A DNA stretch of 64,000 bases from an uncultured Ignavibacteriales bacterium. Its GTDB lineage: Bacteria; Bacteroidota; Ignavibacteria; Ignavibacteriales; Ignavibacteriaceae. Position numbers and translations under genes: made by a program. Numbering within the stretch: position 1 is the first letter of the stretch; each line of letters starts with the position of its first letter. This document shows, in pieces, positions 3,410-38,699 of the stretch. The notes beneath the pieces are model-generated. The model was given only the letters and a program-made list of their open reading frames with translations, had not been told where the DNA came from and searched no databases. Where the stretch lies: NCBI GenBank assembly GCA_963751355.1, contig CAVVVS010000077.1, positions 1-64,000 on the forward strand, given 5' to 3'.

Positions 3410-3422
3410 TCCTAAAGAGATA

Positions 3423-5229: not shown

Positions 5230-5254
5230 TGATCAGTATCTTTGATACTGATCA
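5230..5254 (-). terminator. Perfect 11-bp-stem hairpin (TGATCAGTATC-TTT-GATACTGATCA), a probable terminator
   Basis: Lies 18 nt downstream of the stop of 5272..5493 on the minus strand. The U-tail is weak. Confidence 0.4.
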
Positions 5255-5271
5255 ATTCAGCAGCTATCTTG

Positions 5272-5493: not shown

Positions 5494-5536
5494 GAATTCT
5501 CCTCTTTTTTCCCCCGTAATATCTTACGCTACATTT

Positions 5537-6172: not shown

Positions 6173-6473
6173 GATCTATCTTCTTTCCTGAACGGGGCAT
6201 ATTTAATTATTAGAACCTCTGCAGAATAAATATTTTACTCTATCGTCACTTCGACCAACGGGAGAAATCTTTCAATTCAAAAAGATTTGCAGCATTGGCC
6301 TACGAATTTCAGGCGATGACTCCTTCGAATCGTCGAATAAACTATTCTGCAGAGAATCTATTCTTTTCCTTATTATTTTAAGTAACACAAATTCATAATA
6401 TTTTAGGTGACATGAGTTAATAAGAAATCGGATATCACATAAACAATTTAAAACTCTCCAGAGATCTAAATTA

Positions 6474-6518
6474 ATTCAATGGAGCAAAGGGATGAAAAAG
6501 GGACTACATTTTATGGGG
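6474..6518 (-). promoter_or_regulatory. Conserved upstream element, copy 3
   Basis: AATTCAATGGAGCAAAGGGATGAAAAAGGGACTACATTTTATGGGG, about 300 nt upstream of 5537..6172. Confidence 0.5.
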
Positions 6519-6879
6519 AAATAGCTTTCTTGCAATGACCGGATTTTAGCAGAGGATTAAACAGAGAAAAAAAATATTTCCCTTGTTAGATTAAATACTC
6601 ACATTATTCTTACTTGTTCAAATATCGTCTTTTCTTCATAAATTTCCTTTTTCCTCTTTTTGTCGATCCCTTGAGAAAGACACTTCCGGAATAATTTAAG
6701 CAGGAACATAGTCTACGTAAAAAGATAGAACTACAATTTAGAAACAATACTTAATTTTCTTTTTTTACATTCACAATACTGTTGGAAAAATTCGGAATTA
6801 CATGACAAGTAGTTTTTATCGCTTTATGAAAAATGAGTTATATAACTTTTTATTTCCTTTAACATGATTAATAACTAAT

Positions 6880-6906
6880 AGAAGCGGCACGTTTAGTGCC
6901 GCTTCT
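6880..6906 (-). terminator. Rho-independent terminator for the OmpA-TSP3 operon
   Basis: Perfect 11-bp stem AGAAGCGGCAC-GTTTA-GTGCCGCTTCT, 30 nt downstream of the stop at 6935. Confidence 0.6.
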
Positions 6907-6934
6907 ACAAATGAGATTTATAACGATAAAAGAA

Positions 6935-8341: not shown

Positions 8342-8383
8342 TTAGATCTCCTTTTTTTTATAATTAAATACGATTATATCTTT

Positions 8384-8881
8384 TTATTGAAAGAAATATC
8401 TTATACCCAGACCGGCATCAAGCCCTAACCCTGTAAGCGGAGTAAGCTGAAATACCGGCACTAACTCGACGAATACATCTATCGGTGTTGAATGCGGAAA
8501 CCATGCTATGCCAAAAACACCTCTTATACCTATTGAAGCATCATAACCTCCGCCGCTGTTAAACCTTCCGCCTATTCCATAATAGAGAGGAAATCTTTCT
8601 GTTGCATTTATGGCATCGAATGAGTGCCAGAGATAATCCATGTGAAAATGGACTCGGTTTTGCCTATCGTAGTGACCTTCGTAATGGATACGATCTCCAC
8701 CAACGGACAAGCCAAGCCCGAAATCAAATGCATTTATCTTTGATGTCCAGAGTTTTGCACTCAACCCTGTCGGTTCTCCTAAAATAAGACCAAGCCCAAA
8801 TCCGTGATCCTGCGCCGCACTTGGTTTCGCAAATACAGCCATTATAACCAATACCATACAAAAAATAAGATTCTTATTCAT
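8384..8881 (-). CDS. Secreted glycine-rich protein, possible small outer-membrane beta-barrel
   Basis: Signal peptide, alternating Gly/aromatic pattern, C-terminal ...YFFQ. It lies 43 nt upstream of the OmpA-TSP3 gene. Confidence 0.55.
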   Translation of the reverse strand: MNKNLIFCMVLVIMAVFAKPSAAQDHGFGLGLILGEPTGLSAKLWTSKINAFDFGLGLSVGGDRIHYEGHYDRQNRVHFHMDYLWHSFDAINATERFPLYYGIGGRFNSGGGYDASIGIRGVFGIAWFPHSTPIDVFVELVPVFQLTPLTGLGLDAGLGIRYFFQ

Positions 8882-9027
8882 TAGTAAAATCCCTTTTATT
8901 AATTTCTATTTATTCCTATGTTGATTTGAGCATTCCTAAATCACTATGTCGTTTTCCAATAATGATTTTGCCAGCAATACAATCACTTTTTTCGTTCACA
9001 TAATAAGCTACATGAAGAAGCAAGGTA

Positions 9028-9070
9028 AATCAATCGGTCAAAAGGATGAAAAAGTAGTTAATCCTATAGA
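9028..9070 (-). promoter_or_regulatory. Conserved upstream element, copy 4 (diverged)
   Basis: AAATCAATCGGTCAAAAGGATGAAAAAGTAGTTAATCCTATAG, about 150 nt upstream of 8384..8881. Confidence 0.45.
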
Positions 9071-9289
9071 TCTATAACTACTTGTCTTTAACGAAAAAAT
9101 TTTGTGCCTTATGTATCCCTTTCTGTGGAAAAAATATTTAATAAAAGATTGATGGACGAGACTTCGCCCATGCGACAATGTCGCACCATGAATGCATGCG
9201 GTTTTACGCAATCATGATCCAAGAATATTTTGAATCATAAAATAAAATAAGATTGATGGTATTATACATTGCGTAAAAGGCTGCGATAA

Positions 9290-9415
9290 TTATTGATTGA
9301 GGATCCCCTGGTCTTTTTTCCCATATTTCTTTTCTCTTTTAGCTTCCTTTTTTTCTTTCATGGTTTTTGCCGGTTCTTTTTTAGAACCCTTTTTAGTATC
9401 ATGACTTTTGCTCAT
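9290..9415 (-). CDS. Small lysine-rich protein (41 aa), not present in the ORF track
   Basis: Minus-strand ORF MSKSHDTKKGSKKEPAKTMKEKKEAKREKKYGKKDQGILNQ. A GAGGT Shine-Dalgarno sits 8 nt upstream of the ATG. Confidence 0.35.
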   Translation of the reverse strand: MSKSHDTKKGSKKEPAKTMKEKKEAKREKKYGKKDQGILNQ

Positions 9416-9521
9416 TTTATTACCTCATTTGATGAATTATTAAATACACTTACCTGAACAGGAAATTAAACAACTCCGCAGATCCATTTCATAAATCGAC
9501 CATTAAGTTCACTTAAAATTT

Positions 9522-10208
9522 TCAATCTGCTATTGAAATATCTTTAGCAATCTTTTTCAGAGTTTCGTTTGAGTAAGAATAGTTTGCAACTTCCAAACGT
9601 GTATGCAATAGAAGCTTTTCCATTATATTATGAATATGGCTCTTAACCGTAAAAGTTGAAATGGACAGAGTTTGTGCAATCTCTTTGTTACTTAGTCCAT
9701 TGCCTATTAATCCGATAATCTCCCGCTCCCGTTTCGTCATACGAGTAGCTTCTTTCAACTTAACTCTACCGCCTTTAAGTGCATGCTCAACTATTTTTGA
9801 AAATAGCGATTCGGAAAAATTATTCGGAAGTACACTTTTACCTTCGGAAACTTCATGTATTGTGATAAGAAATTCATCGGGTGATGCATCTTTTAAAATA
9901 AAACCGGATGCACCGGCTTTGACAAATTGATTTATATCTTTCTGCACGGGTGCAAGATCCATCACAATTACCTTTGCATAGGGAAAATCCTTTTTTACGA
10001 CTTCTATCACGGTAAAACTATTTTGGTTGCGTAATCCCAAATCCAGAAGAATAATATCCGGCATTAATTTCTGTATTTTTAGAATGGTGTCCGCACTATT
10101 TCCGGATAACGAAATTACTTTTATATCTTTCTGCTTTTTAAGCATCGCAATAATTCCGTCGCGGAGCAGCCGGTTATCTTCGATTAAAAGCAATTTAATT
10201 TTTTTCAT
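9522..10208 (-). CDS. NarL/FixJ-family response regulator (REC + LuxR-type HTH), orphan
   Basis: REC domain with LLDLGL phospho-acceptor Asp. C-terminal LuxR HTH (REREIIGLIGNGLSNKEIAQTLSISTFTVKSHIHNIMEKL). No histidine kinase nearby. Confidence 0.85.
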   Translation of the reverse strand: MKKIKLLLIEDNRLLRDGIIAMLKKQKDIKVISLSGNSADTILKIQKLMPDIILLDLGLRNQNSFTVIEVVKKDFPYAKVIVMDLAPVQKDINQFVKAGASGFILKDASPDEFLITIHEVSEGKSVLPNNFSESLFSKIVEHALKGGRVKLKEATRMTKREREIIGLIGNGLSNKEIAQTLSISTFTVKSHIHNIMEKLLLHTRLEVANYSYSNETLKKIAKDISIAD

Positions 10209-10237
10209 AAAAAAAATCTATAGAATGATATACAAAA

Positions 10238-10280
10238 TTTCAATCGGGCAATAGAATGAAAAAGGATCTAGCTCTTTTGG
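10238..10280 (-). promoter_or_regulatory. Conserved upstream element, copy 5 (diverged), 30 nt upstream of the response regulator start
   Basis: TTTCAATCGGGCAATAGAATGAAAAAGGATCTAGCTCTTTTGG. Confidence 0.4.
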
Positions 10281-10577
10281 ACGAATAAATAATCAATCCC
10301 TAGTCACAATTTTGTTTATTCGCCAATTTTAAATGAATGAAACACTTTCCGAATTTATTTTAAGATTTAAGTAATTAGAACAAAAACGGACTAACCCGGG
10401 AGAGGCGGAAAGCCGTTTAATCAATCTCAGCGAGGCGCAGCCAATGGCAAAATAAAAGAATGAATGCATGCGGCTTCATGCAGTCAAATTTCAAGAATAT
10501 TTTGACAAAAAAACAATAATATGATTGCAGTTACTTTTTTATAAAATCTTTATTAAAAAAGATTTGAAAACCGCATT

Positions 10578-11480
10578 TCATTTGGTATCCAAAATAATAG
10601 GCAGCCCGTCTTTCCCGCTCCCAATAATTATAACCTTCGCATTGTTTGACTCCGCAATTTTCAAGGTTGCTTCAATCCCTTTCCAGCGAAGTAATTGTTC
10701 GCTGATGCCTGCAGCAACAATCGTCTGAAAATCGGCAATACCCTTTGCTTCAATTCGTTTCCGGTCAGCCTCTTGTTTTTCTTTAGTGAGGATGAATTCC
10801 ATCCTTTGGCTTTCCTGATCAGCTCGTTGCTTTTGCTCAATTGCCTCAGTTAGTTGTACCGGCAAAGCCACATTCCGTATGGGTGTATTCTCAATAGTAA
10901 CGCCCCGGGGAGCAACAGTTTTAGCCAGTTCTTCCTGAATAGCCGAGCCGAGCTGTTCCCTTTCGGTTGAATACAAAGCACTTGCCTGGAAACTTGCTGT
11001 TACTGAGCGGCTGATGGAACGAAACTGGGGAATGAGAATGATGGTTTCATAATCACCCCCGGCAACCGTTTTATAGACGCGAGCTGCGGAATCCGGGTTG
11101 AGCCTGTAAAGCGCACTTACTTCCAAACCGATTGTGAGACCTTCACGGGAAAGAACCTGCATAGTTTCTTTATGTTCTTTAGTCTGGATTGAATATTTTA
11201 TTACTCTTGCAAGCGGATTAACGATATTGATTCCCGAAGGTAGGGGCTTATCCGATACAATACCAAAAAAATCTACAACACCGACATGACCGGCGGGAAC
11301 CTGTGTGAAACACTGAAGCAACGCAATAATTCCGAAAAAACCCGCAACAAAAATGCTAACTTTACCAGCCGTATGAAATGCTATATTGTTTTGATTTATT
11401 TTCTTTTTTGTACCCATCCATACTAATATGGCAATTACGGCAATTAACAGTGATAAAATAAATATCATTCTAACCCCCAT
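10578..11480 (-). CDS. SPFH/band-7 (prohibitin/HflC-like) membrane protein
   Basis: N-terminal TM, SPFH core (QVPAGHVGVVDFFG...) and a C-terminal coiled-coil. Confidence 0.8.
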   Translation of the reverse strand: MGVRMIFILSLLIAVIAILVWMGTKKKINQNNIAFHTAGKVSIFVAGFFGIIALLQCFTQVPAGHVGVVDFFGIVSDKPLPSGINIVNPLARVIKYSIQTKEHKETMQVLSREGLTIGLEVSALYRLNPDSAARVYKTVAGGDYETIILIPQFRSISRSVTASFQASALYSTEREQLGSAIQEELAKTVAPRGVTIENTPIRNVALPVQLTEAIEQKQRADQESQRMEFILTKEKQEADRKRIEAKGIADFQTIVAAGISEQLLRWKGIEATLKIAESNNAKVIIIGSGKDGLPIILDTK

Positions 11481-11536
11481 TTAAAATTAATGTGCATTAT
11501 TAATTGCAATTTAAGATGCAACTAATTGGAATTGGT

Positions 11537-11582
11537 AATCAATCTATCAAAAGGATGAAAAATGGTCTAATGCTCAATTGGA
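11537..11582 (-). promoter_or_regulatory. Conserved upstream element, copy 6 (diverged)
   Basis: TAATCAATCTATCAAAAGGATGAAAAATGGTCTAATGCTCAATTGG, about 60 nt upstream of the SPFH gene. Confidence 0.4.
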
Positions 11583-11775
11583 ATAAAAAAACGATGCTTC
11601 CTATCTCGAGATTATTAGCTTTTCTGCAAAATAGTTTATTTATCATCTCGAAGAACTCATCGACTGAGATCTGCGCGCCTATGATGCAAATTTTTTAGAA
11701 TTGTGAAATTTCTCCCTTCGATAGAAATGACAATTAAGTAAAATATTTATTTCGCATAGATTCTAGTATAAATAT

Positions 11776-13257
11776 TTAATTAATGTTGTTTGAAACCTTC
11801 CGGAAATGATAACCATAGATAGAGAACATAATAGCGAGTGAAAAGAGTTTAGGCTTTATGAATAAAGACCAGAAGAAGAGTTTCCAGTAATAAAGTCTTT
11901 CCTTTCCGACGATACCTAATTTTAAAATTGATTTCATTAACGCTTGTATATAACTAGAATTTATATGGAATATTTTCTTTTTCTTAGGGTCAAAGTCTTT
12001 TAGAAAACTAGTAACGCGTTCATAATAATATTTGGGTGAATATATAGTATCCAGTATTTTTTTGTACCCTTCCATCAATAGTTCCGAGTTCATTTTTGGA
12101 ATAAAATTAATGGAAAAATCAGTATTGTTGCCTGTAAAATCGTTAAGCAGTCTTCCTTCCTTCTCCAATCGTTTATGAAGCTTGGTCCCTGCCGGGGCAT
12201 TTAACAGTCCTACCATTGCGGTAACTATTCCGCTTTTCTGAATAAATGCTGTAAGCTTTTCAAATATCGAAGCCGGATCATTGTCAAACCCAACAATAAA
12301 TCCTCCCTGAACTTCCAATCCGAATTGCTGAATCTTCTTTATGCTTAAGAGTAAATCGCGATTTCTGTTTTGTGTTTTGTTACATTCAAGTAAACTTTCT
12401 TCATTAGGTGATTCGATTCCGATGAATACAGCTTCAAACCCGGCTTTAACCATCAGCCGCATAAGCTCTTCATCATCGGCAAGATTAATTGAAGCCTCGG
12501 TGTTCAAGTAAAAAGGACTTTTCCTTTTTTCCATCCATTCTGCAATTGCCGGTAGAATTTCCTTTTTCAGCTTCGATTTATTCCCGATAAAATTATCATC
12601 TACAAAAAAGACAGGACCTTTCCACCCGCTAAAATACAATTGATCCAACTCGGCGATGACCTGCTCTTTGGTTTTGGTTCGTGGTTTTCTTCCGTAAAGA
12701 ACGGTTATATCGCAAAAATCACAGTCATAGGGACAGCCTCTTGAGTATTGAATATTCATTGACGAATAATCATTCATTGAAATTAGATCCCAGCTGGGCA
12801 GCGGGGTAGCGGCAATATCAGCCCATTGATCCGTAGTATAAATATGTTCCGGCTTTCCGGCATTCAAATCATTAATAAATTGTGGGAGAGTTATTTCGGC
12901 TTCTTTTAGTACCAAATAATCAACATTATCATAGTTTTCACTGAGGCTGGTAAAATGCGGTCCGCCTGCTACAATTTTTGTATTTAGTTCATTACATCTT
13001 CGTATCACCTCATTTGCCGATTGACTTTGAACGGACATGGCACTGATAAAAACATAATCAGCCCATAAGATATCATCATCTTTCAGTTCGGTTGTATTTA
13101 AATCAATAAGCTTTTTGTTAAAACCGGAAGGCAGTATAGATGCAATTGTTAATAATCCCAACGGCGGAAAACTTGCTTTTTTTGAAACAAATTTGAGCGC
13201 ATGTTTAAAGCTCCAAAAGGTGTCGGGGTAAACAGGGTATACTAAAAGGATATTCAT
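11776..13257 (-). CDS. B12-binding-domain radical SAM protein (DUF4070-type C-terminus)
   Basis: N-terminal B12-binding-like region (ILLVYPVYPDTFWSF...PPLGLLTIA). CxxxCxxC motif (CPYDCDFC). Confidence 0.8.
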   Translation of the reverse strand: MNILLVYPVYPDTFWSFKHALKFVSKKASFPPLGLLTIASILPSGFNKKLIDLNTTELKDDDILWADYVFISAMSVQSQSANEVIRRCNELNTKIVAGGPHFTSLSENYDNVDYLVLKEAEITLPQFINDLNAGKPEHIYTTDQWADIAATPLPSWDLISMNDYSSMNIQYSRGCPYDCDFCDITVLYGRKPRTKTKEQVIAELDQLYFSGWKGPVFFVDDNFIGNKSKLKKEILPAIAEWMEKRKSPFYLNTEASINLADDEELMRLMVKAGFEAVFIGIESPNEESLLECNKTQNRNRDLLLSIKKIQQFGLEVQGGFIVGFDNDPASIFEKLTAFIQKSGIVTAMVGLLNAPAGTKLHKRLEKEGRLLNDFTGNNTDFSINFIPKMNSELLMEGYKKILDTIYSPKYYYERVTSFLKDFDPKKKKIFHINSSYIQALMKSILKLGIVGKERLYYWKLFFWSLFIKPKLFSLAIMFSIYGYHFRKVSNNIN

Positions 13258-13290
13258 TAATTAACTCTTTAAGTCGTTATAAATATTTTC

Positions 13291-14835
13291 CTAAACAGCA
13301 ATTCGTTCGGCTATTGTTTTTAGATAAGCATTCTGATCATGGAATATTGCCCCTTCAGGAAGCCAATCCCACAGCGGTCCCAGTTCATTTTGAATAATGT
13401 CTTTATAGAATTGAGGAAGTTCGGTCGTTTGCTGTTCAAAATAGTCCCGGAATTTTGTATCTGAATTAAGCTGTGAAAGTATTTTTTTATTATATGCAAC
13501 TCTGCCGAAACCTTCCTCGGATATTGCGCGCACAACATTCATCCATCTAGGAATGAATGCTTTTGTTGCAATCAACCGTTTCATAATTGCGGCCCATGAA
13601 AAAGTATGTTCACCTAAGCTGATAGTATGAGCATAAAACTCCTGCCACGAATAATTTTTCGGTTTCACATTCATAGCATGATTATTATCCAGGAAATGAA
13701 ACGGGAACGGAAGTACCCGGTTTGATTCTTGATACTCGAGGTTTAGCGGCGCTGCCCTTCCGAATGCGGATAATAATGAATAGCCGGGAAATGCCCCGGG
13801 GGTCATATCTACGAATTTTTTAGTAAGTTCAAACGGCTCTTCGCCTTTGTCGGCGTCGAGTCCCAAAACAAAATTAGTTTGAACATACGGAATATATCGT
13901 AAGATCATGTTAACCTGTTCCGCGATCTGTTTAACCTTATCCATCCCGGTCGTACTTCCCGTTTTTGATTTGTTCCCGAGATCATACCACGATTCAATGC
14001 CCGGCAGCATGGCGCCGAACCCATTTCGTTTAAGCCGTTTTACATGAGGTTCGGACAGCAAGGATAAACTACTTTCTGCGATAAAATCTATGCTATTCAT
14101 GGGTACAACCTCCTCTATTGCATCCATGTATTCGTTAAACCGGATTCCAAAGTTCGGGTCATGCCATCCTACAAGAGGGCGTTTGAACTTTGTAAGCAGA
14201 AACGATAAGTCTTCCTTCAAAACATCAAAGTCAAGCGGCTGATACGCTACAGTTGAGTCAATACAGAAACTGCAGGTGTAAGGGCATCCTAAACTGCCGA
14301 GCATAGGGACCATTTTTATTAGCGGAGCCTTTTTGAGTGTCGGTTCAATAAATTTCCATCTCTCCTTAACCCCGGGAATTGATAAAGGGTGGTTTTGAGC
14401 CGTAAGATGCAGACCCGTGGGTCGGTGGGGTGAACAATCGTGCAAAATTTCATGAATAATATTTTTATCCGTAAACCCTGCAACATAATCGAAATATTTT
14501 ACCGAATCCTCCGGGTAGCAGCGTGCATGAGGTCCTCCCAACACAGTAACCGCACCGTGAGACCGAAGGAGATTACTTAAAGCATAAGCTGTTTGTGCTG
14601 CTTCGGTAAACGCACATATAAAAATTAAATCGGCATTCTGCGGCAGTTCTTTTATTAGATCCTCTTTGCCTGTATAACAAATATAGGTGACGTTATGACC
14701 CTCTTCTTCACACCACACTCCTACAACTTGCGGCATTATACTTGCAAAGTTCGCATTCATTATGCGCGCAAATAATTTTTTGTTAGGCTTTTTTGAAACA
14801 AGGTCTATTATTCCTACCTGAAGTTTGCGACTCAT
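13291..14835 (-). CDS. B12-binding-domain radical SAM protein
   Basis: CxxxCxxC motif (CPYTCSFC). Same architecture as its neighbour. The two are in tandem with a 33-nt gap. Confidence 0.8.
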   Translation of the reverse strand: MSRKLQVGIIDLVSKKPNKKLFARIMNANFASIMPQVVGVWCEEEGHNVTYICYTGKEDLIKELPQNADLIFICAFTEAAQTAYALSNLLRSHGAVTVLGGPHARCYPEDSVKYFDYVAGFTDKNIIHEILHDCSPHRPTGLHLTAQNHPLSIPGVKERWKFIEPTLKKAPLIKMVPMLGSLGCPYTCSFCIDSTVAYQPLDFDVLKEDLSFLLTKFKRPLVGWHDPNFGIRFNEYMDAIEEVVPMNSIDFIAESSLSLLSEPHVKRLKRNGFGAMLPGIESWYDLGNKSKTGSTTGMDKVKQIAEQVNMILRYIPYVQTNFVLGLDADKGEEPFELTKKFVDMTPGAFPGYSLLSAFGRAAPLNLEYQESNRVLPFPFHFLDNNHAMNVKPKNYSWQEFYAHTISLGEHTFSWAAIMKRLIATKAFIPRWMNVVRAISEEGFGRVAYNKKILSQLNSDTKFRDYFEQQTTELPQFYKDIIQNELGPLWDWLPEGAIFHDQNAYLKTIAERIAV

Positions 14836-15078
14836 GTAAAACCCTATTTTTACTCATCTATATATTAACGACTTTTACACCAAGTGTTATAAATTACTTT
14901 TTGTAATCCTGAATATTGCCGAAGGTATGCCCATGGGTAATCAAAATCACTTTTCATGAGTACAAGATTCAACAAGATTTTTGCAAAACATTGGTTATCA
15001 ATATAGATTATTTGAACGGATATTGTCCGTTGAACTATGCTGCTGTTATCAGTCAGCTTTAATTGTCAATAAGATATA

Positions 15079-15135
15079 AAAATCTCATTCGATATAAATG
15101 GTTCAAACGGATGAAAAAGGGATTAATCCTAAAGG
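15079..15135 (-). promoter_or_regulatory. Conserved upstream element, copy 7, about 270 nt upstream of the radical SAM pair
   Basis: AAATCTCATTCGAT..CAAACGGATGAAAAAGGGATTAATCCTAAAGG, with a 12-nt insertion in the 5' box. Confidence 0.45.
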
Positions 15136-15472
15136 ATGATAATTTTTGCTGCACCATTTTCCAAATCCTTTGTATAGATTGGTTTGATTATTGCGATAAT
15201 AGCGCCATATGTTGTACCGAATTTAATATTTTTCGTTTAAAATTATTAATTTATAACTCGGTGAAACCGGAACTGAATGAAAGAATAGAGTTTTGTTTTT
15301 ATGCAATTTCTATTACAATTTAAGCAGGTATACGTCCATGCCGCCGCAGCTTTCTCGATATCAAAAAAATATCCAACATTTTTCTAAGAATTTCAGTATA
15401 AAGAAGTTAATTGCATTTTACCGCTCTGTCTGTTCCATGTTTTCTGTTAAATATGTTATTAGACCTTCTAGA

Positions 15473-15850
15473 TTATTTTTTGTGATTCATTTTGTAGCCC
15501 GACATCTTCATTGGTTTTGTACTGTCACCCATCATGCTGAGGGCTTTTGGAGTCACATCGTTTATACTTGTTTTTTGATCTACCATACTCGAAACTATGG
15601 AATTCATCTCAGGATTATCCATTATTGATCTTCCGAGCTTAGTCATTTCTATTTTGTTGCCGGTTGTTTTATCCAACAACATTGCCATCATCATACTCCG
15701 CAATTCGGAATCTGACGATATTTTAGTCATCCATTCTTTAGTCTGAGCATTTATTTCTGTTTTGTCATTATTGCTTTTGACCTGTGCAATTAATGGTATA
15801 GACATTAATGCTAAGAATAATATTAAATATTTCATTTTTCTGCCTGTCAT
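15473..15850 (-). CDS. Secreted methionine-rich protein, possible metal-binding (copper?) periplasmic protein
   Basis: The likely true start is MKYLILFLALMSIPLIAQ at 15835. There are multiple Met clusters (MMMAML, SMMGDS, KPMKMSGYKMNH). Confidence 0.5.
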   Translation of the reverse strand: MTGRKMKYLILFLALMSIPLIAQVKSNNDKTEINAQTKEWMTKISSDSELRSMMMAMLLDKTTGNKIEMTKLGRSIMDNPEMNSIVSSMVDQKTSINDVTPKALSMMGDSTKPMKMSGYKMNHKK

Positions 15851-15950
15851 TTTTTATGGCTATATAAAATTCAAATTAATTTTGAGGGAATTTCGTAGGG
15901 ATCTGCATAAACTTTCAAATAATTATTTCCTGTTTATAATGAAGACGGAT

Positions 15951-16139
15951 CTATTCCAGTTTATCAATCATTGTAATAACTTCTGTTTTAGTTTTTGATA
16001 ATTTTTCCTGTAACTTCGTCAATAGGTCGCGTTCATCGCCGTTGTTTAATTTTAAATCGTCTGCCGTTATTGTTGGATATGCAAGTCTAATTTTTTCTTT
16101 AAGAGCAAGCCAATTCCCTTTATTATTTATCTGGTACAT
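15951..16139 (-). CDS. Small hypothetical protein (62 aa)
   Basis: ORF-track entry that lies 65 nt downstream of element copy 8. Confidence 0.4.
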   Translation of the reverse strand: MYQINNKGNWLALKEKIRLAYPTITADDLKLNNGDERDLLTKLQEKLSKTKTEVITMIDKLE

Positions 16140-16189
16140 ATTAGAGCCTCTTTTTGGTTATTAAGTATTAATATATTACGGAGAAAGGG

Positions 16190-16241
16190 AAAGTAAGTAA
16201 ATAGGGCAAAGGGATGAAAAAGGGACTAATCCTTTTATTGG
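16190..16241 (-). promoter_or_regulatory. Conserved upstream element, copy 8 (best consensus match)
   Basis: AAGTAAATAGGGCAAAGGGATGAAAAAGGGACTAATCCTTTTATTGG. Confidence 0.5.
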
Positions 16242-16379
16242 ATGTGTCATGTTACGCAGCAATGTTTATAATATTATTCTATTATCTCGATAACATCGCA
16301 GCACAGAATAGTTGCCTGTGCCGCGAAACTAAATTATGCCGGTCATTACTCAACATGACCGAGTAGATAAATATAATAG

Positions 16380-16850
16380 TTATTTCGATTGAATCTTTTT
16401 AGCCATTTTATCTTTTTCAAAAGATATTGCGATACAAACATTTCTTACGGATTCATTAGTTGAATTATTAGCCGCTTCATAAATTGCATGATCACCAATA
16501 TCTGAATGAAGTTCATCCAGTGCAATGGCTGCAGTTATGCGTAATTGGACACCTAATTTTTCATTTTTTACGATGTCCATCAAAGGTTTAACAAATGTAC
16601 TAAATGAGTTGTCGGGGAAAATCTGCTCAAGTTCCCAGAGTGTTTGCACTGATGATAATTTTACGTTTGTAGAACCATCCTGTAAATGTTGTAAAAGCAT
16701 TTTTTCTGTATTTTTCAAATTCTTCTTTAAAGTTTCAGAATTATGTTGTTCCGAAAAACGCGTTGGTCTATCCTGTGCAAAAGATAATGTACTCGCAAAG
16801 AAGAAAAGTAATGACATTGAAAGAACTAATGAGAATATGTGATTTTTCAT
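16380..16850 (-). CDS. Secreted HEAT/armadillo-like repeat protein
   Basis: Signal peptide and helical repeat-like segments (LRITAAIALDEL, VRNVCIAI). Confidence 0.5.
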   Translation of the reverse strand: MKNHIFSLVLSMSLLFFFASTLSFAQDRPTRFSEQHNSETLKKNLKNTEKMLLQHLQDGSTNVKLSSVQTLWELEQIFPDNSFSTFVKPLMDIVKNEKLGVQLRITAAIALDELHSDIGDHAIYEAANNSTNESVRNVCIAISFEKDKMAKKIQSK

Positions 16851-16985
16851 TTTAGTAACCCCTTATGTTTATTAATAATTAATTTGTTTTATTAGCCGGT
16901 CTAATTTTTTTTACAGAGATATGCAAACTGGCTGCATACTTATGGTTTTTAATTTAGGTGATTAATGTTAATAATAATGGAAAGT

Positions 16986-17036
16986 AAATGATTGATCAAT
17001 AGTACAAAGGGATGAAAAAGGGATTAATCCTCTTGC
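16986..17036 (-). promoter_or_regulatory. Conserved upstream element, copy 9, which overlaps the last 4 codons and the stop of response regulator 17024..17755
   Basis: AAGTAAATGATTGATCAATAGTACAAAGGGATGAAAAAGGGATTAATCCTCTTGC, about 150 nt upstream of 16380..16850. Confidence 0.5.
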
Positions 17037-17755
17037 TCTATGTTTGATGAAAAAGAGTGAGTAGTACCATTAAAATCTTTAGAAGAATGAGCATATTTAG
17101 CAATCTGTACCCTCGTGTGAAGCGCAAGTTTTTCAAGTATGTTATGGATATGACTTTTTATTGTGAATGTTGATAAATGCAGCTTTTGTGCAATTTCTTT
17201 ATTAGTTAAACCATCGGAAACTAAGTCTATCACTTGTCGTTCCCGTTTTGTCATCCTTACGGATCCAATTATCTTTGAAGTATTTGAATCATTTAATGCC
17301 TGAATAACTATCTGGGAAAAAAGTGATTCCGTTAAATTTGGCGGCAGCACCTTAGCTCCGCCTGCAACAGATCTAATTGTTCGAAGAAAATCATCTACAG
17401 TTGCATCTTTGAGGATGAAGCCGGAAACCCCGGCTTTTACAAACATCAATACATCTTCCTGTATAGGGACAAGATCCATCACTATAATTTTTGTGTTATG
17501 AAAATCTTTTTTTATTACTTTTACAAGTTGTAAACTATTTTGATTGCGTAGGCCGAGATCAAGAAGTACAATATGTGGTTCAAATTTACGGATGTATTCC
17601 TGTGCTTTTATACAATCACCAAAAGCAGCCACTGCTTTTAGATCATGTTGTTCCGCAATCATTGCCGATATGCCATCTCGTAAAAGCCGGTTATCTTCGA
17701 CAATTAGTATGGATATCTTTTTTGATTTATTCATTACCCCCTTAAGGAAATACAA
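17024..17755 (-). CDS. NarL/FixJ-family response regulator, a paralog of 9522..10208, orphan
   Basis: Roughly 55% identical to the other response regulator over the REC + LuxR HTH domains. The true start is probably MNKSKKISILIVEDN. Confidence 0.85.
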   Translation of the reverse strand: MYFLKGVMNKSKKISILIVEDNRLLRDGISAMIAEQHDLKAVAAFGDCIKAQEYIRKFEPHIVLLDLGLRNQNSLQLVKVIKKDFHNTKIIVMDLVPIQEDVLMFVKAGVSGFILKDATVDDFLRTIRSVAGGAKVLPPNLTESLFSQIVIQALNDSNTSKIIGSVRMTKRERQVIDLVSDGLTNKEIAQKLHLSTFTIKSHIHNILEKLALHTRVQIAKYAHSSKDFNGTTHSFSSNIEQED

Positions 17756-28909: not shown

Positions 28910-28973
28910 CACGTGAATTTGAATCATAATCATGATTACTCCGCTTTTTATCTTACCCCAAAAACTTTCCTTA

Positions 28974-29272
28974 TTTAAAGAATTTCCCATTTTTTATTTG
29001 CTATAATCAATTAAAAAATATAGTTTTATAAATGTTTTGTATAATTGGGGTACGCCTATATGATTTTTGCATGTCGATATTTCTAATTATGCTTCATGCC
29101 CAAATTTGTATGATAACAATTTTAATTGATTACTAATACATCTCAAAATTCCCGACAGCTGAGTTTAGTGCTGAAGCAATTTAGAATTTTTCTCGTTTGA
29201 GGAATATTTCCTCTATATAAGTAATGATCTTAAAGGTAATTGAGAACTTAATACTATGTTAGGCATTAGCAA
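28974..29272 (+). repeat. Direct repeat copy 1 (about 300 bp including a 47-bp insertion), containing the promoter and ATG of 29256..30182
   Basis: About 95% identical to 32224-32478. It includes TTTTTATTTGCTATAATCAATTAAAAAATATAG...AATACTATGTTA. Confidence 0.85.
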
Positions 29273-30182
29273 AGAAAGAATATTAGTGAGTAAAAGAACT
29301 CATATTATATTAATTTCAATATTTATATCTTTATCGACTTTTTCTACTATTTACTCACAAAAAAAAGATTTTTTCCCATTATCAGTCGGCAATGAAGTAC
29401 ATTATTCATATTTTGTAGAGTATGCATCATATAAGAGCCCTCTTTATCCAGCAGAAAGTCATGATGATTTTAGTAAAGATAGCGGAGAAGTAGCTTATAA
29501 ATTTATAGATTCAACTCTTCTAAATGATACCACAGTAGTATGGACTATCCGTGAAATTCGCGATTTATTTTCATTTCAGTGGCATCTAGATTCTTTAGGT
29601 GTGAGGGATACAGTTACTTATAAAAAAATAGATAGTGCAGAATATCCATTGTATGAATATACTTCTGGATTACATGGTTTATATGCTTATATGCTTGTAT
29701 TCAATTTTTCTGGTAAAGTATATAGATATTCTGATACTGTTGCAGACAGTATTGTTTATAATTTACAATCAGTCCCTTATACTTTTGTAAAAAACATTGG
29801 GCTAACAAAAATATTGTATTCAAACTCTTTCGTAGGTAATTTTTCCTATGAAAATTATACTAAGAAAATTACACTTATAAGAGATATTACAAATATAGAT
29901 TCAAGAAACATTAAACAATATCGCTATTACTTGCGACAAAATTATCCTAATCCGTTTAATCCAACGACTACAATTGAATATTCAATTCCCAAAACAAGTT
30001 TTGTTAGCATAGAAGTATACGACTTCTTAGGAAAGAAGGTTGCCGCATTGGTAAATGAAGTAAAAAAAGAAGGAGATTATAAAGTAAAATTTAATGCATC
30101 ATTTCTTTCAAGTGGGATATATTTCTACAGAATGCAAGCTGGAAATTTTGTTGAGACTAAAAAATTAATTTTATTGAAATAG
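29256..30182 (+). CDS. Secreted protein with a T9SS (Por) C-terminal sorting domain
   Basis: The C-terminus YPNPFNPTTTIEYSIP...GIYFYRMQAG matches the TIGR04183 CTD. N-terminal signal peptide. Confidence 0.8.
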   Translation: MLGISKERILVSKRTHIILISIFISLSTFSTIYSQKKDFFPLSVGNEVHYSYFVEYASYKSPLYPAESHDDFSKDSGEVAYKFIDSTLLNDTTVVWTIREIRDLFSFQWHLDSLGVRDTVTYKKIDSAEYPLYEYTSGLHGLYAYMLVFNFSGKVYRYSDTVADSIVYNLQSVPYTFVKNIGLTKILYSNSFVGNFSYENYTKKITLIRDITNIDSRNIKQYRYYLRQNYPNPFNPTTTIEYSIPKTSFVSIEVYDFLGKKVAALVNEVKKEGDYKVKFNASFLSSGIYFYRMQAGNFVETKKLILLK

Positions 30183-30303
30183 TATCAAATGCATAACCAT
30201 CGGCTCGTGTGCCTTGAAGCAGCTATAGACAGCGCCAAAAATTTGTATGAAAAAAGAGGGGCAATGTTTCCGGAAATGAATATATAATGATATTTTCCCC
30301 TCT

Positions 30304-32223: not shown

Positions 32224-32478
32224 CTTTAAAAATTCTCACTTTTTATTTGCTATAATCAATTAAAAAATATAGTTTTATAAATGTTTTGTATAATTGGGGT
32301 ACGCCTATATGATTTTTGCATGTCGATATTTCTAATTATGCTTTAAGCCCAAAATTCCCGACAGCTGAGTTTAGTGCTGAAGCAATTTAGAATTTTTCTT
32401 GTTTGAGAAATATTTCTTCTATATAAGGAATGATTTTAAAGGTAATTGAGAACTTAATACTATGTTATGTTTACTAAA
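32224..32478 (+). repeat. Direct repeat copy 2, located immediately upstream of 32491..34410
   Basis: See copy 1. It lacks the 47-bp segment and retains a vestigial ATGTTA start. Confidence 0.85.
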
Positions 32479-32490
32479 AGGTAACAGAAT

Positions 32491-34410
32491 ATGAAAAGAT
32501 TATTTTCTCCACCATATGAAGAATTAGAAAATCTGAGAACTAAGTTAGAACCTGGTGAAAAGGCTGTCATTAAATTTTTTCATAAACACTTACCTGATTC
32601 TTGGGAAATATATATCCAGCCCCATCTAAACGGATTACGTCCTGACTTAGTATTATTGAACCCTAAAATTGGTATTGCAGTATATGAAATAAAAGACTGG
32701 GATTTAAACTCTCTTAACTATTATATCAAAGAAAAAGATGATACTGCTCCAGAACTCTGGGCATCAAAAAATGGGAAACACTTCTCATTACAGAAAGAAA
32801 ATCCTATTGAAAAAATATTCAGATACAAACAAGAAATATTCGATTTATATTGTCCAAGGATTGATAACAAGGCTGGATATGCAGTAATAACAGCGGGTGT
32901 AATTTTTCCGTTTGCTGATGAAAAGAAGTTAAAAGGACTTTTTAATCTTTCTCGAGCCTACAGAAAAATGGATAAATTTGAAAATTATTATCCTTTGATA
33001 GGTCAACAAACTTTTGATGGAAATAATATTAAATCGGTTTTTTCTGCTTCTACATATTCATCCTCTAAATATATGAACATTAATCTGGCAAAAGATTTAA
33101 GAAATTGGCTCATTGAACCTGATTTTGCAGCAACACAAAGGATATCGGTTGAAAATGATTTAGATAAAGAACAAAGGAAATATGTAGTTGGAAATGATGC
33201 AAGAACTAAATCTGGTTTCAGACGAATTAAAGGACCTGCTGGCTCCGGAAAATCACTAGTACTAGGAGCTAGAGCATCTCAACTAATTTCAGAAGGTAAA
33301 AAGGTGCTTGTTGTAACCTTCAATATTACTTTGCTACATTATTTAATGGACATAGCAGTTCGCTACCCACACGGTAGTGCAAACACTCGTGAGGATATAA
33401 CTTGGTTAAATTTTCATTTCTTATGTAAAAGAATTTGCTTGGAAAGTGGTTTTGAAAAAGAATATAAAGAACTTTGGAAAAACAATTTTGATTTAGAAGA
33501 TGTATTTCTTGACCCTAGTTTTTCAAGTGATAATTTTACAAATAATACCTTGACAAATGAATTGCCTGTATTAGTTGACAGAATATTATCTAATCATCCT
33601 AACAATTTTTTGAATAAATATGACGCTATCCTTGTAGATGAGGGACAAGACTTTTTACCTCATTGGTGGGCAATTCTTCGAAAACTTTGTAAAACTGATG
33701 GTGAAAAGTTACTTGTAGCCGATTCAACACAAGATATTTATGGAACAGCAAAATCCTGGACGGATCAAGCAATGGATGGGGCTGGATTTCGTGGTGGTTT
33801 TGCTGAATTGAAAATAAGTTATAGAATGCCTCCTAAATTAATATTACTAGCAAGGGATTTTGCAGAAAAATTTCTTCCTAAAGATTCTATTGATTTGCCA
33901 TTAGCACCACAAATTGAATTGGAACTATACCCTTGCAAACTTAAGTGGATTCAAACAACAAAAGAATTGTCTGAAGAAATTTGCAAAGAAGAAATTCTAA
34001 AAATGGCACAATCGGCTGATCCTATTTTATTATCGATACCCGATATTACTTTTTTGACAAACAGTTTAACATTTGGGAAAAAGGTTTCAGAAAAATTAGA
34101 AAAATATAATGTGAATGTATTGCACACTTTTGGTGATGATAGCCAAGATACTAGAAGAAGAAAAATAGGTTTTTATATGGGTGATGCAAAAATCAAAGCT
34201 ACTACTCTTCATAGTTTTAAAGGTTGGGAAAGTAGAGCCATTGTTATTTATTTGGGTCACAAGTATGACATTAAATCTATGTTTCTTGCTTATACTGGTA
34301 TGACAAGATTAAAGAGACATTTAGAATCAAGTTTTTTAACTATAGTCTGTGCAATACCTGAATTAAAATCTTATGGAAATTTGTGGGATGAATTTGAAAT
34401 ACGAACGTAA
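32491..34410 (+). CDS. NERD-domain nuclease fused to a UvrD/SF1-like helicase-ATPase (standalone)
   Basis: N-terminal NERD (KAVIKFFHKHL...YIQPHLNGLRPDLVLLNPKIGIAVYEIKDW). Walker A (GPAGSGKS), Walker B (ILVDEGQDF) and UvrD_C-like (TLHSFKGWE). Confidence 0.7.
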   Translation: MKRLFSPPYEELENLRTKLEPGEKAVIKFFHKHLPDSWEIYIQPHLNGLRPDLVLLNPKIGIAVYEIKDWDLNSLNYYIKEKDDTAPELWASKNGKHFSLQKENPIEKIFRYKQEIFDLYCPRIDNKAGYAVITAGVIFPFADEKKLKGLFNLSRAYRKMDKFENYYPLIGQQTFDGNNIKSVFSASTYSSSKYMNINLAKDLRNWLIEPDFAATQRISVENDLDKEQRKYVVGNDARTKSGFRRIKGPAGSGKSLVLGARASQLISEGKKVLVVTFNITLLHYLMDIAVRYPHGSANTREDITWLNFHFLCKRICLESGFEKEYKELWKNNFDLEDVFLDPSFSSDNFTNNTLTNELPVLVDRILSNHPNNFLNKYDAILVDEGQDFLPHWWAILRKLCKTDGEKLLVADSTQDIYGTAKSWTDQAMDGAGFRGGFAELKISYRMPPKLILLARDFAEKFLPKDSIDLPLAPQIELELYPCKLKWIQTTKELSEEICKEEILKMAQSADPILLSIPDITFLTNSLTFGKKVSEKLEKYNVNVLHTFGDDSQDTRRRKIGFYMGDAKIKATTLHSFKGWESRAIVIYLGHKYDIKSMFLAYTGMTRLKRHLESSFLTIVCAIPELKSYGNLWDEFEIRT

Positions 34411-34633
34411 ACATAATAACCGGCTCAACCAACCGCACTTTCGAGCTCGGCGAATTTAGGGGGTGAGATAAGCCAAATAAAAATTGCACTAAGTTATATA
34501 TTTATTATTTAGAAATGGCAATGATATTAATTACTAGAATACCACCTAAATTTTTAGATTAGTCATTCTGTTAATAAATAAAATTAATTCATTTTTCAAT
34601 TTCCGAAATAAAATTATAAAAATAGGGGTAATC

Positions 34634-37714: not shown

Positions 37715-38699
37715 TTACCAGTAATGATGAACAAGCTTGCGTATTTTTCCCAAGTATAATTTTTCAACTGCATTCATTGTTCCCTCGCTGAGCGGAGGCA
37801 ATTCTGCAGATTTAATGTTTTCTTCCACTTGAGATGAGCGCTTGCCTCCGGGGATTGCACATGTAACTTCCGGAAACATCAATATCCAGCGCAATGCAAA
37901 TTGAGCCAATGTCATTCCTTCCGGTACAAGTTTTTTAAGTCCTTCGACAGCTTCGAGTCCGGTTTGATAATCAACTCCCGAAAATGTCTCACCTTTATCA
38001 AAGGCTTCACCATGCCGGTTAAATTTCCGGTGATCATCATCTGTAAAAGTTGATTGCGAAGTAAATTTTCCTGTGAGCATTCCCGAAGAAAGCGGCACTC
38101 TTGCAAGTATACCGATATCTTTGCGGGCTGCTTCTTTTAAAGAATAATTCTTTTGGTCGCTGCCGGAATATGTTAAATATGATTTGAACTGTTTTCACAT
38201 TAGGAAATTCGATTGCTTTTAATGCTTCTTCTACCTTTTGTACGCTTACACCATAGTTAAGAAGCTTACCCTGTTTTACAAGATCATCCAGGACACCGAA
38301 TGTTTCCGGCATATAATACACTTCCGTCGGCGGACAGTGAAGCTGTAGCAAATCGATTGCTTCTGTTTCTAAATTTTTAAGACTTCTTTCCACGAATGTT
38401 GTGATGTTTTCGCGATTGTAGCCTTCTGCTGTGTGTGGATCAAGTCTTCTGCCTGCTTTAGTAGCAATATAAAAATTTTCTTTTCGTTCTTTGCGCAGTT
38501 TAGCTAAAAGGCGTTCGCTTCTCCCATCGCCGTAAACATCAGCGGTATCGAAAAAATTAACACCGTGGTCAAGCGCTGCATGAAGCGCATCCATCGATTC
38601 CTTATCTGAAACATTTCCCCAGCTTCCCCCAATTGCCCAGCTTCCGAAACTGACTGCCGATACTTTCCAGCCGGTTCGCCCTAATTTACGGTATTCCAT
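37715..38699 (-). pseudogene. Aldo/keto reductase interrupted by a frameshift (two overlapping ORFs, 38037..38699 and 37715..38098)
   Basis: The N-terminal ORF carries AKR motifs (GSWAIGG, DTADVYGDGRSE, LLQLHCPP). The C-terminal ORF carries the AKR C-terminus (PLSSGMLTGKF...AQFALRWIL). The frames shift around 38100-38190. Confidence 0.6.

Follow-up and report, generated by a model that had tools for sequence, protein, structure and literature searches.

A NERD nuclease and UvrD-like helicase fusion moving as an integron cassette: a candidate single-gene defence protein and its stranded copy in an Ignavibacteriales genome

Among the described systems closest to the protein considered here is Nhi of Staphylococcus epidermidis, a single polypeptide in which an N-terminal nuclease is followed by an SF1 helicase and which has no partner. 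Nhi responds to the SSB or replication complexes of phages and breaks down their DNA (PMC10732053), and a NERD domain is listed (PMC10952713) for the "Nhi-like" proteins that Millman et al. (2022) described. Gabija carries UvrD-type SF1A motifs in GajB, and its nuclease, GajA, is of the OLD/TOPRIM kind and is supplied in trans. NERD effectors are found in HEC-02, a validated anti-phage system composed of an ABC ATPase and a NERD protein (Payne et al., 2024, 10.1101/2024.01.29.577857), and in ZwsA, an anti-phage VHS-DUF647-NERD-S4 RNA endonuclease whose defence is abolished by mutation of the (D/E)xK lysine (2026 preprint, 10.64898/2026.04.06.716636). The PADLOC candidate family C3a187 was defined from three genes next to type III-A/B cassettes, with Dole_0738 as the representative and an association score of 39 (Shah et al., 2018, RNA Biol, PMC6546367); the literature searched yielded no experimental work on it. 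That integron cassettes serve as a reservoir of defence genes is well established (Darracq et al., 10.1101/2024.07.02.601686; Kieffer et al., 10.1101/2024.07.02.601719). Many of the anti-phage cassettes are single-gene defences, and none of the three reports on them mentions a cassette coding for a NERD protein or a helicase (Darracq et al., 2025; Kieffer et al., 2025; Getz et al., 2025).

We analysed a 64-kb stretch of DNA from an uncultured Ignavibacteriales bacterium, referred to below as the window. It holds an intact gene on the + strand (32491..34410, ATG start) that encodes a protein of 639 aa, a length and position that the initial annotation had given exactly. A NERD domain of the PD-(D/E)xK type occupies aa 21-116 (32551..32838, +) and scores 29.1 bits against Pfam PF08378, above the cut-off of 22.1 bits, with D52 (nt 32644-32646), E66 (nt 32686-32688) and K68 (nt 32692-32694) as predicted catalytic residues. 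It is followed by an SF1A UvrD-like helicase core at approximately aa 220-620 (33148..34350, +), which contains Walker A (GPAGSGKS, aa 248-255, 33232-33255), the DEGQD motif (33637-33651, within VDEGQDF, aa 382-388) and motifs III, IV, V and VI. The helicase N-terminal domain is matched by PF00580 (UvrD-helicase, E 2.1e-11), in agreement with the nuclease-helicase fusion originally proposed. The UvrD_C-like C-terminus proposed along with it gives only a sub-threshold Pfam match (PF13538, E 0.16), although the predicted fold of the 639-aa protein does support a complete SF1A core. The structures closest to this core are UvrD, Rep, PcrA, HelD and AdnB, and the comparison with solved structures returned generic SF1 helicases only. 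Pfam detected neither CARF nor SAVED nor any other sensor domain for cyclic oligoadenylates in the protein. Judged by its domain content, the product is a single-polypeptide enzyme in which a predicted NERD nuclease at the N-terminus is joined to a compact SF1A helicase of the UvrD type.

D52, E66 and K68 are invariant in all 20 sequences aligned and 91-96% conserved across 225 sequences; the catalytic residues of both parts taken together are either invariant or 91-100% conserved in this larger set, which spans 35-93% identity, and Walker A, DEGQD and motifs III-VI are likewise conserved in the family alignments. An Fe-S or zinc cluster built from five invariant cysteines was considered and rejected, as C400 and C482 are conserved in only 58% and 72% of the 225 sequences, respectively. 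Against the orthologues at the relatives' loci L005, L012 and L010, dN/dS is 0.079-0.112, and the gene is under strong purifying selection (dN/dS ~0.08-0.12). Its description as very AT-rich was right in direction and overstated in degree: the GC content of 31.9% compares with 37.3 +/- 3.9% for window genes (z = -1.4) and is the 6th lowest of 53.

The Pfam UvrD-helicase match, together with marginal structure matches to PcrA, HelD and UvrD (E 5e-5 to 2e-3), raises the question of whether the protein is an ordinary housekeeping helicase, that is, an orthologue of UvrD, PcrA, Rep or HelD with an extra N-terminal domain, an orthology that the initial annotation had itself named as grounds for refutation. 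However, no NCBIfam equivalog comes near its cut-off, the best scores being 13-19 bits against cut-offs of 543-1144 bits (UvrD, PcrA, Rep, helicase IV, HelR). Synteny with any relative ends at the gene itself, its neighbours differ among relatives that are 84-93% identical, and the family is scattered over more than 10 phyla at ~55% identity. The NCBIfam scores, the distribution and the lack of synteny effectively refute housekeeping orthology, which we consider hardly credible.

The protein had been called Nhi-like and a possible unclassified variant, and neither label is supported. It is a full-length member of C3a187, the PADLOC model named "NERD+UvrD" (E 7.6e-145, 481.9 bits, aa 2-635 against profile positions 2-556 of 559), and it has the architecture of that family, a D...ExK NERD domain and UvrD-type SF1 motifs in one polypeptide; the NCBI product name is "NERD domain-containing protein/DEAD/DEAH box helicase". 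The PADLOC Nhi model, PDLC02372, aligns only to aa 164-275, around Walker A (profile positions 122-232 of 470, E 3.1e-7), and the AbiO model behaves in the same way. Since the Nhi profile matches only in part and the helicase core here is SF1A, closest to UvrD, Rep and HelD, the protein shares the design of Nhi and belongs to a different family, so that the likeness is an architectural analogy only. Bacillus relatives were considered as a bridge to the Nhi-like proteins and ruled out: the Bacillus homologue (29% identity), like the Acinetobacter homologue (40% identity), matches the C3a187 model too, and Nhi is absent from the PADLOC matches listed for either. Partial matches to many GajB models reflect shared UvrD-type SF1A motifs, but they span motif II-III segments only, the best (E 1.7e-9) covering aa 364-458, and do not amount to family membership. 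Moreover, the window encodes nothing resembling a GajA partner, none is conserved across 84 loci, and the nuclease here is NERD-type and fused in cis, unlike the OLD/TOPRIM nuclease of Gabija. A NERD effector, still a candidate one in the present protein, is shared with HEC-02 and ZwsA; the former has its ABC ATPase in trans instead of a fused SF1A helicase, and the latter cleaves RNA and has no ATPase.

The family comprises 939 clusters at 50% identity and is patchy, occurring in 414 of ~185,000 species from more than 10 phyla in a distribution that conflicts with phylogeny. Most copies are chromosomal, 16 plasmids carry homologues, and no homologue was found on phages. The origin of the C3a187 model, in genes beside type III-A/B cassettes, implies an accessory effector of type III CRISPR-Cas. 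That association stems from only three genomes, however, and no CRISPR-like array was found within +/-10 kb at any of 91 loci, the window included. No cas families occur in the window or among the neighbour families listed (25 of 80), and the protein lacks the sensor domains sought above. A type III role is thus very improbable, and the same profile that was named for a CRISPR neighbourhood here describes genes outside one; the PADLOC name hints at an accessory function that none of the 91 loci backs, which calls for a correction of the annotation.

The gene directly follows a duplicated repeat, as had been reported, and the promoter label first given to this repeat is putative. Copy A (28974..29261, +) precedes a second cassette-like gene, copy B (32225..32467, +) ends 24 nt before the ATG of the NERD-UvrD gene, and the two are ~95% identical apart from a 43-nt indel. 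Both contain an extended -10-like TGcTATAAT (28999-29007 and 32248-32256); a sigma-70 scan called no promoter inside the repeat, and no Bacteroidetes-type TAnnTTTG motif was found there. The ~240-nt repeat is absent from all loci retrieved for comparison and from JGI metagenome contigs searched with two exact 23/24-mers. As a guess by analogy, prompted by a duplicated attI-like 18-mer at the relatives' locus L014, it might be an attI/Pc-like region. A putative leader ORF of 10 codons (MLCLLKGNRI*, 32462..32494, +), read from the sequence, arises at the junction of repeat and cassette, and its TGA overlaps the ATG of the gene (ATGA).

What the initial annotation took for a repeat junction is, by its sequence, the crossover point of an integron cassette, which that annotation had overlooked. 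Copy B ends at a G|TT crossover, and the R' core site GTTATGT(TTACT) at 32464..32475 (+) forms the 5' boundary of the cassette. This is where similarity to four other genomes sets in: in blastn comparisons with L005, L027, L012 and L010, the start lies at 32463/32464 in all four and the match is confined to 32463/4-34416/43, and the rest of the 64 kb matches no relative's locus. At the other end, the cassette start GTTATGTTTAC pairs with GTAAACATAAC behind the stop codon. At L005, this 11-nt complement of GTTATGTTTAC and GTAAACATAAC is perfect and was equalled by 1 of 2000 shuffles, and perfect complements of 9-11 nt are present at both L005 and L027. The window copy retains an attC 5' half (R''-L'') that begins ACATAA(TAA)CCGGCTCAACCAACCGC (34411..34458, +), whose inverse core, ACATAA(TAA)C at 34411-34420, is complementary to the cassette start and contains a 3-nt insertion relative to L005.

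The rest of this attC is disrupted (34459..34633, +). Aligned to the attCs of L005, it consists of an ~85-nt insertion starting GGGGGTGAGATAA, followed by an AT-decayed stretch, and has no L'-R' half. The GGGGGTGAGATAA motif also occurs in an insertion within an L005 attC; the sole candidate for an inverted-repeat partner in the window, at 28948, has 2 mismatches and is within chance expectation. No attC 3' half of this type exists on the strand of the gene anywhere in the window, where a loose pattern for such a half finds one isolated match on the opposite strand, 22 kb from the gene. There is accordingly no complete, foldable attC in the window, only a surviving 5' half. Neither an IntI-like integron integrase nor any Rfam match was found in the 64 kb. 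Because the attC 3' half is lost and no integrase was detected within the window, the copy is a stranded ex-cassette that keeps its 5' core and attC 5' half and has a disrupted 3' half; as it lacks a functional attC and a nearby integrase, its mobility at this site is historical. Exact look-ups of the neighbouring proteins, made with presence/absence polymorphism in mind, returned no record.

A second decayed cassette is apparent upstream (29256..30230, +), where a gene for a Por_Secre_tail protein, ending at 30182, begins within GTTAGGC (29258-29264) and is followed by an R''-like GCATAAC-CATCGGCTC from 30191 onward. Its GC content, 28.3%, is the lowest among window genes. The two cassette-like genes of the window (29256-30182 and 32491-34410) are parted by two opposite-strand genes.

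Evidence of cassette mobility comes mainly from the relatives. A 22-kb stretch of L005 contains at least 15 attC-like elements as a same-orientation array, and 13 of 15 delimited units have their first 9-12 nt complementary to a site just after the gene of the unit. Within the attC stem, compared among L005, L012 and L027, 10 of 15 pairs covary, and pairing reaches 94.4% against 78% in shuffles, with none of 500 shuffles as high. L014 is a canonical integron, in which a divergent intI fragment (TIGR02249, E 2.9e-14) is present and short attCs flank the gene, and L040 has a degraded integrase remnant. End complementarity was positive at 23 of 84 loci against 4.8 expected, and all 23 belong to Ignavibacteriales/Bacteroidota, Campylobacterota or Gammaproteobacteria. 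Cassette calls rest on these tests of end complementarity, flank repeats and covariation; a home-made attC detector (complementary 7-mers, 45-230 nt spacing, MFE stem) was discarded, as it gave 416 matches against 332 in shuffled sequence and overlooked most of the obvious L005 sites. The NERD-UvrD cassette measures ~1.95 kb plus an attC of 190-230 nt. Compared with typical integron cassettes, it is large and its attC is unusually long. Taken together, these sequence signatures identify the NERD-UvrD gene as accessory and as transferred horizontally in the form of an integron gene cassette.

With the anti-phage integron cassettes (Darracq et al., 2025; Kieffer et al., 2025; Getz et al., 2025), the loci examined here share GTTRRRY / RYYYAAC cores and, in the relatives, structured attCs, same-orientation arrays and, in one case, a position next to intI; the candidate is also a single-gene one, as many of those defences are. 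On the other hand, the integron hosts here are Ignavibacteriales/Bacteroidota-like, Campylobacterota and environmental Gammaproteobacteria rather than Vibrio or clinical class 1 integrons, and the window copy, unlike those cassettes, now sits outside any functional integron.

Gene neighbourhoods bear on what the protein may do. That it has no operon partners, as first noted, holds in the window and across 84 loci, where no neighbour family is common to more than 8. In the window, methyltransferases, a PNPOx-like protein, a T9SS cargo protein and an RND pump lie nearby, and no recognisable defence island is present. Elsewhere, the homologue on an Acinetobacter pittii plasmid is embedded among the genes of a type I R-M operon (hsdM-hsdS-[homologue]-hsdR), after which comes a Gabija-like pair, the Bacillus cereus homologue adjoins an R-M-like pair, and the neighbours of other homologues include PtuA/PtuB-like (Septu-like) genes, a type II R-M pair, SoFic, antitoxins, resolvases and RadC. 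Defence genes are a small minority, ~5%, of the 150 nearest neighbours, a rough estimate based on 25 of 80 families listed, and most nearest neighbours are without annotation.

Carriage on mobile elements could also mean that the protein serves those elements by helping plasmids or cassettes to persist, to compete or to counter defence; it might, for instance, degrade rival plasmids or the intermediates of host restriction. Copies on conjugative or mobilizable plasmids near genes for ParB-N, an ArdC-like zincin, a strawberry-notch helicase and recombinases, the recurrence of large serine recombinases and RadC among neighbours, and mobility as an integron cassette are consistent with such service. 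Most copies, however, are chromosomal, phages lack the gene, and embedding in a type I R-M operon beside a Gabija-like pair is a classic signature of host or mobile-element defence, not of anti-defence. We consider this explanation unlikely, and it overlaps heavily with a defence role because defence borne by a mobile element also benefits the element.

An accessory enzyme of DNA repair or recombination, processing ends in the manner of RecB, AddA or AdnB after damage to host DNA and not attacking invaders, has about the same small chance. RecB, AddA and AdnB likewise couple a nuclease to an SF1A motor, the structures nearest to the helicase core are UvrD, Rep, PcrA, HelD and AdnB, and RmuC and exonuclease VII are occasionally among the neighbours. 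RecB-type nucleases are C-terminal, however, whereas the nuclease here is N-terminal and of the NERD type. Nor does any NCBIfam repair-helicase model come near its cut-off, and a sparse distribution at odds with phylogeny, a genomic context that varies even at 84-93% identity and carriage as an integron cassette and on plasmids all speak against a repair function.

Defence against phages or plasmids is a reasonable and, from the sequence evidence, likely hypothesis, for which the gene is a good single-gene candidate. As a whole, a NERD-SF1A fusion that is an integron-cassette accessory gene and functions as a stand-alone nucleic-acid-targeting defence is the best explanation, to which we assign a probability of roughly 0.55. 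The NERD-UvrD protein would act alone against phages, plasmids or both: driven by ATP, its SF1A motor would engage invading DNA at ssDNA, at ends or at replication intermediates and move along it, presumably 3'->5', the direction in which SF1A motors run, so that the substrate would reach the NERD active site (D52/E66/K68) and be cut. As in Nhi and Hna, the cue that tells non-self from self might be a phage replication complex or ssDNA coated with SSB. We infer helicase polarity, nuclease substrate and trigger from the families involved. Integron cassettes bear many non-defence functions as well. A more far-reaching proposal, which we advance tentatively and at somewhat less than even odds, is that C3a187 NERD-UvrD may be an autonomous single-protein immune system whose mechanism differs from those of Nhi and Gabija, spread by integrons over at least 3 phyla as an unusually large cassette, with stranded copies illustrating chromosomal fixing after attC decay.

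The nuclease and motor residues of the NERD-UvrD protein are easily mutated, which makes it an obvious target for a test. If defence is confirmed, a widespread single-gene system, with the 939 clusters and more than 10 phyla noted above, would be added to those known. Such confirmation would also carry the idea of integrons as defence libraries beyond Vibrio and clinical integrons, to those with long attCs in Ignavibacteriales/Bacteroidota-like hosts, Campylobacterota and environmental Gammaproteobacteria. The window itself offers a worked example of cassette stranding in which the gene is still under selection.

The gene at 32491..34410 (+) starts with ATG and encodes a 639-aa protein in which a NERD nuclease domain is fused to an SF1 helicase, as the initial annotation had proposed. 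Pfam recognizes NERD (PF08378) at aa 21–116 (29.1 bits against a 22.1-bit cut-off) and UvrD-helicase (PF00580) with E 2.1e-11, and the motifs noticed earlier, Walker A GPAGSGKS and motif II VDEGQDF, lie at aa 248–255 and 382–388; of the proposed UvrD_C-like C-terminus, only a weak UvrD_C_2 match (E 0.16) is left. Both active sites are conserved: an alignment of 20 sequences shows no variation in D52, E66 and K68 of NERD or in GxxGxGKS, DEGQD, TQDxY, YR, HSFKGWE and GxTR, and the NERD triad and helicase motifs are 91–100% conserved among 225 sequences of 35–93% identity. Strong purifying selection still acts on the window's gene, with dN/dS of 0.079 against the orthologue on contig L005 and 0.10–0.11 against those on L012 and L010. 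Close relatives all keep the cysteines at aa 121, 312, 316, 400 and 482; of these, only C121 and C312 are more than 90% conserved across 225 family members, which makes a metal cluster throughout the family unlikely. The description of the gene as very AT-rich was overstated: its GC content is 31.9%, and the 53 ORFs in the window that reach 120 aa have 37.3 ± 3.9% (z = −1.4). Orthologues elsewhere, at 32–33%, agree with the gene's value.

Rather than the unclassified variant once suggested, the protein is a member of a family already catalogued and no new kind of system, matching the PADLOC candidate model C3a187, "NERD+UvrD", over its full length (aa 2–635, E 7.6e-145). C3a187, represented by Dole_0738, goes back to Shah et al. 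(2018; PMC6546367), who described it as a cluster of three members near type III-A/B CRISPR cassettes, and is a candidate through guilt by association. The "Nhi-like" label holds for the design shared with Nhi but not for family membership, as the Nhi model matches only aa 164–275, weakly (E 3.1e-7). The AbiO and GajB models also give short, weak matches, and identity with GajB was rejected on that ground. Despite its UvrD-like core, the protein is very improbable as a housekeeping helicase, orthology to which had been named as counting against a defence role: its scores against the NCBIfam helicase equivalogs all fall far short of their cut-offs, and this identity was likewise rejected. The family is broad. 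At 90% identity, over 1,600 clusters have words in common with the query, the best 120 of them being 53–93% identical over the full length; an exhaustive profile search (E ≤ 1e-30) yielded 939 clusters at 50% identity, and relatives are encoded in 414 of 185,579 species genomes from more than 10 phyla.

When the window was compared by blastn with four orthologue contigs, homology was confined to a segment running from 32463/32464 to 34416–34443, with nucleotide identities of 91% (L005), 88% (L027), 81% (L012) and 75% (L010), and the rest of the 64 kb matched none of the fetched loci. The shared segment starts with GTTATGTTTAC, the reverse complement of which, GTAAACATAAC, overlaps the stop codon; the 11-nt end complement of L005 was matched in 1 of 2000 shuffles. 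The two sites are an integron cassette's R' (GTTRRRY) and R'' (RYYYAAC) cores.

The arrays of relatives are consistent with this assignment. L005 carries at least 15 same-strand cassettes within 22 kb, with spacer elements of 181–278 nt that open with xxxTAAC-CCGCGGCTCAAGGCGACAGCG and close with GGGCTGCGCCTTAGCCGC...GTTRRRY, and in 13 of the 15 units delimited by script the first 9–12 nt are complementary to a site just 3' of the unit's gene. Thirteen elements from L005, L012 and L027 have in common a long-range L'/L'' stem with a bulged position, showing compensatory changes in 10 of 15 pairs and 94.4% of cells paired, compared with 78% in shuffles (0 of 500 reaching the observed value); pairing drops to 26–44% when partners are slid by 1–3 columns. 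L014, a contig from a gammaproteobacterial MAG, is a canonical integron: at its edge lies a divergent intI (integron integrase) fragment (TIGR02249, E 2.9e-14), its attC sites are short and classical (GCCTAAC...GTTAGCT and GCCTAAC...GTTAGGC), and the NERD-helicase is one of its cassettes. L040 retains a degraded intI remnant, 1.5 kb upstream and on the other strand. Start/end core complementarity occurs at 23 of 84 loci (4.8 expected), and the perfect cases all fall in the closer clade of Ignavibacteriales/Bacteroidota-like, Campylobacterota and Gammaproteobacteria members; none was found in alphaproteobacterial and cyanobacterial homologues (43–50% identity). The gene is horizontally mobile as an integron cassette. 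In L002/L012, from an Ignavibacteriales MAG, the attC-flanked NERD cassette is preceded, at a distance of about 2 kb, by a reverse transcriptase of the group II intron type (RVT_1 + GIIM; 6531–8021); some group II introns target attC sites.

The window copy retains the R' core (32464) and the R''-L'' half of attC (34411–34458, with a 3-nt insertion). The remainder of its attC is broken by an insertion of about 85 nt (34459–34546) beginning GGGGGTGAGATAA, followed by an AT-decayed stretch that reaches the next gene. One L005 attC carries, at the same position (8897–8985), a small insertion that also starts GGGGGTGAGATAA and is bounded by inverted TTATCTCACCCCC; this may be an attC-targeting MITE-like element, which perhaps helped inactivate the window's attC. 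No attC 3' half of this type was found on the gene's strand across the 64 kb, and a loose 3'-half pattern gave one isolated match, on the opposite strand and 22 kb from the gene. Nor did the 64 kb contain any IntI-like sequence, as probed with an IntI1 sequence, which did pick up the L014 and L040 fragments, independently confirmed by NCBIfam. The window copy has the sequence boundaries of an integron cassette and lacks the complete attC and nearby IntI of a functional one; instead of an array like that of L005, the window shows two cassette-like genes (29256–30182 and 32491–34410) with two opposite-strand genes between them. We read the copy as a stranded ex-cassette, still functional.

The duplicated repeat claimed to precede the gene is present. 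Copy B (32225–32467) ends 24 nt 5' of the start codon and, setting aside a 43-nt indel, is about 95% identical to copy A (28974–29261), which precedes the Por_Secre_tail protein gene (29256–30182), lowest in GC in the window. The latter gene begins within a perfect GTTAGGC, and an R''-like GCATAAC-CATCGGCTC comes after it; therefore, both cassette-like genes follow a repeat copy. The 240–280-nt repeat stops exactly at the G|TT crossover and contains an extended −10-like TGcTATAAT (a similar TTGCTATAATC lies near 36580), and the copy B junction creates a 10-codon leader ORF, the stop of which overlaps the ATG. The repeat is absent from all other fetched loci and, by two exact 23/24-mers, from JGI metagenome contigs. 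In L014, an 18-mer, GCTAATATACTGTTAGGC, occurs at ~755–778, near the intI side, and at ~4003–4027, directly upstream of the NERD cassette, which parallels the window's duplicated upstream sequence. Because this attI-like 18-mer is repeated directly before the cassette, an attI/Pc-like origin of the window repeat is possible.

Elsewhere in the window, an intergenic motif of ~45 nt occurs in seven copies within 1726–17049 (at 1726, 4107, 6478, 9032, 15097, 16200 and 16998), each of them preceding a gene on the minus strand. Read on that strand, it consists of a palindrome (GGATTAATCC) followed by CTTTTTCATCCCTTTG..C.ATT; it has no Rfam match and may act as a common regulatory element or as a terminator/promoter module. 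Overlapping 220-aa and 127-aa ORFs at 37715–38699 (−) resemble the N- and C-terminal parts of one aldo/keto reductase and probably result from a frameshift in the gene or an error in sequencing, and three tandem 90-nt units, 78–84% identical (7329–7684), indicate a repeat-containing protein in the 468-aa ORF 6935–8341 (−).

The gene had been described as having no operon partners, and among 820 clustered neighbour ORFs from 84 loci no family occurs in more than 8; the protein is therefore stand-alone. In eight alphaproteobacterial loci forming a subclade (L044, L047–L050, L053, L055 and L081), a same-strand ORF of ~171–217 aa, with no significant Pfam match, lies 200–330 nt upstream and may be a lineage-specific partner. 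Defence and mobile-element neighbourhoods recur, with large serine recombinases, RadC, a PtuA-like AAA_15/21+DUF3696 ATPase and a C-5 methylase as recurrent neighbours; the 150 nearest neighbours are mostly without a Pfam match, with resolvases, antitoxins, a type II R-M pair, PtuB, SoFic or PDC-S19 making up a minority. An accessory DNA repair function, which the helicase core might serve, is improbable. Sixteen plasmids carry homologues, and no phage does. On Acinetobacter pittii pAR3651_1 (L091; 40% identity, C3a187 E 6.2e-110), a defence island at 3945–15857 has the order hsdM, hsdS, NERD-helicase, a 1146-aa DEAD/DEAH hsdR-like gene, and an AAA ATPase plus ATP-dependent helicase, the last pair resembling Gabija. 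A 29%-identical member on a Bacillus cereus plasmid (C3a187 E 1.4e-77) adjoins a methyltransferase and DEAD-helicase pair, and the homologue on a Sphingobium plasmid has ParB-N, ArdC-like and recombinase genes around it. That the protein serves the mobile elements themselves fits such recombinase-rich settings, and is about as unlikely as the repair function. A type III CRISPR accessory role, suggested by the founding C3a187 cluster, is far less probable still: the family is the same, but the CRISPR context is missing around the window's gene, and none of 91 loci has a CRISPR array within 10 kb.

We favor a role in defence, with a probability of roughly 55%. SF1A helicases as a rule translocate 3'→5' (UvrD, Rep, PcrA); the SF1A motor would translocate on ssDNA and present the NERD nuclease with its substrate, and invading DNA is the presumed target. 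Precedents include Nhi and Hna, both triggered via phage SSB (PMC10732053), HEC-02, an ABC ATPase plus NERD protein (10.1101/2024.01.29.577857), ZwsA, a NERD RNA endonuclease (10.64898/2026.04.06.716636), and integron cassettes as defence reservoirs (10.1101/2024.07.02.601686; 10.1101/2024.07.02.601719). The C3a187 family is not reported in these papers or the other literature searched, in which its cassette nature and lack of a CRISPR link also appear undescribed. As a candidate for defence, the NERD-UvrD gene is real and well conserved; it is also mobile, amenable to experiments and clear in its evolutionary history.
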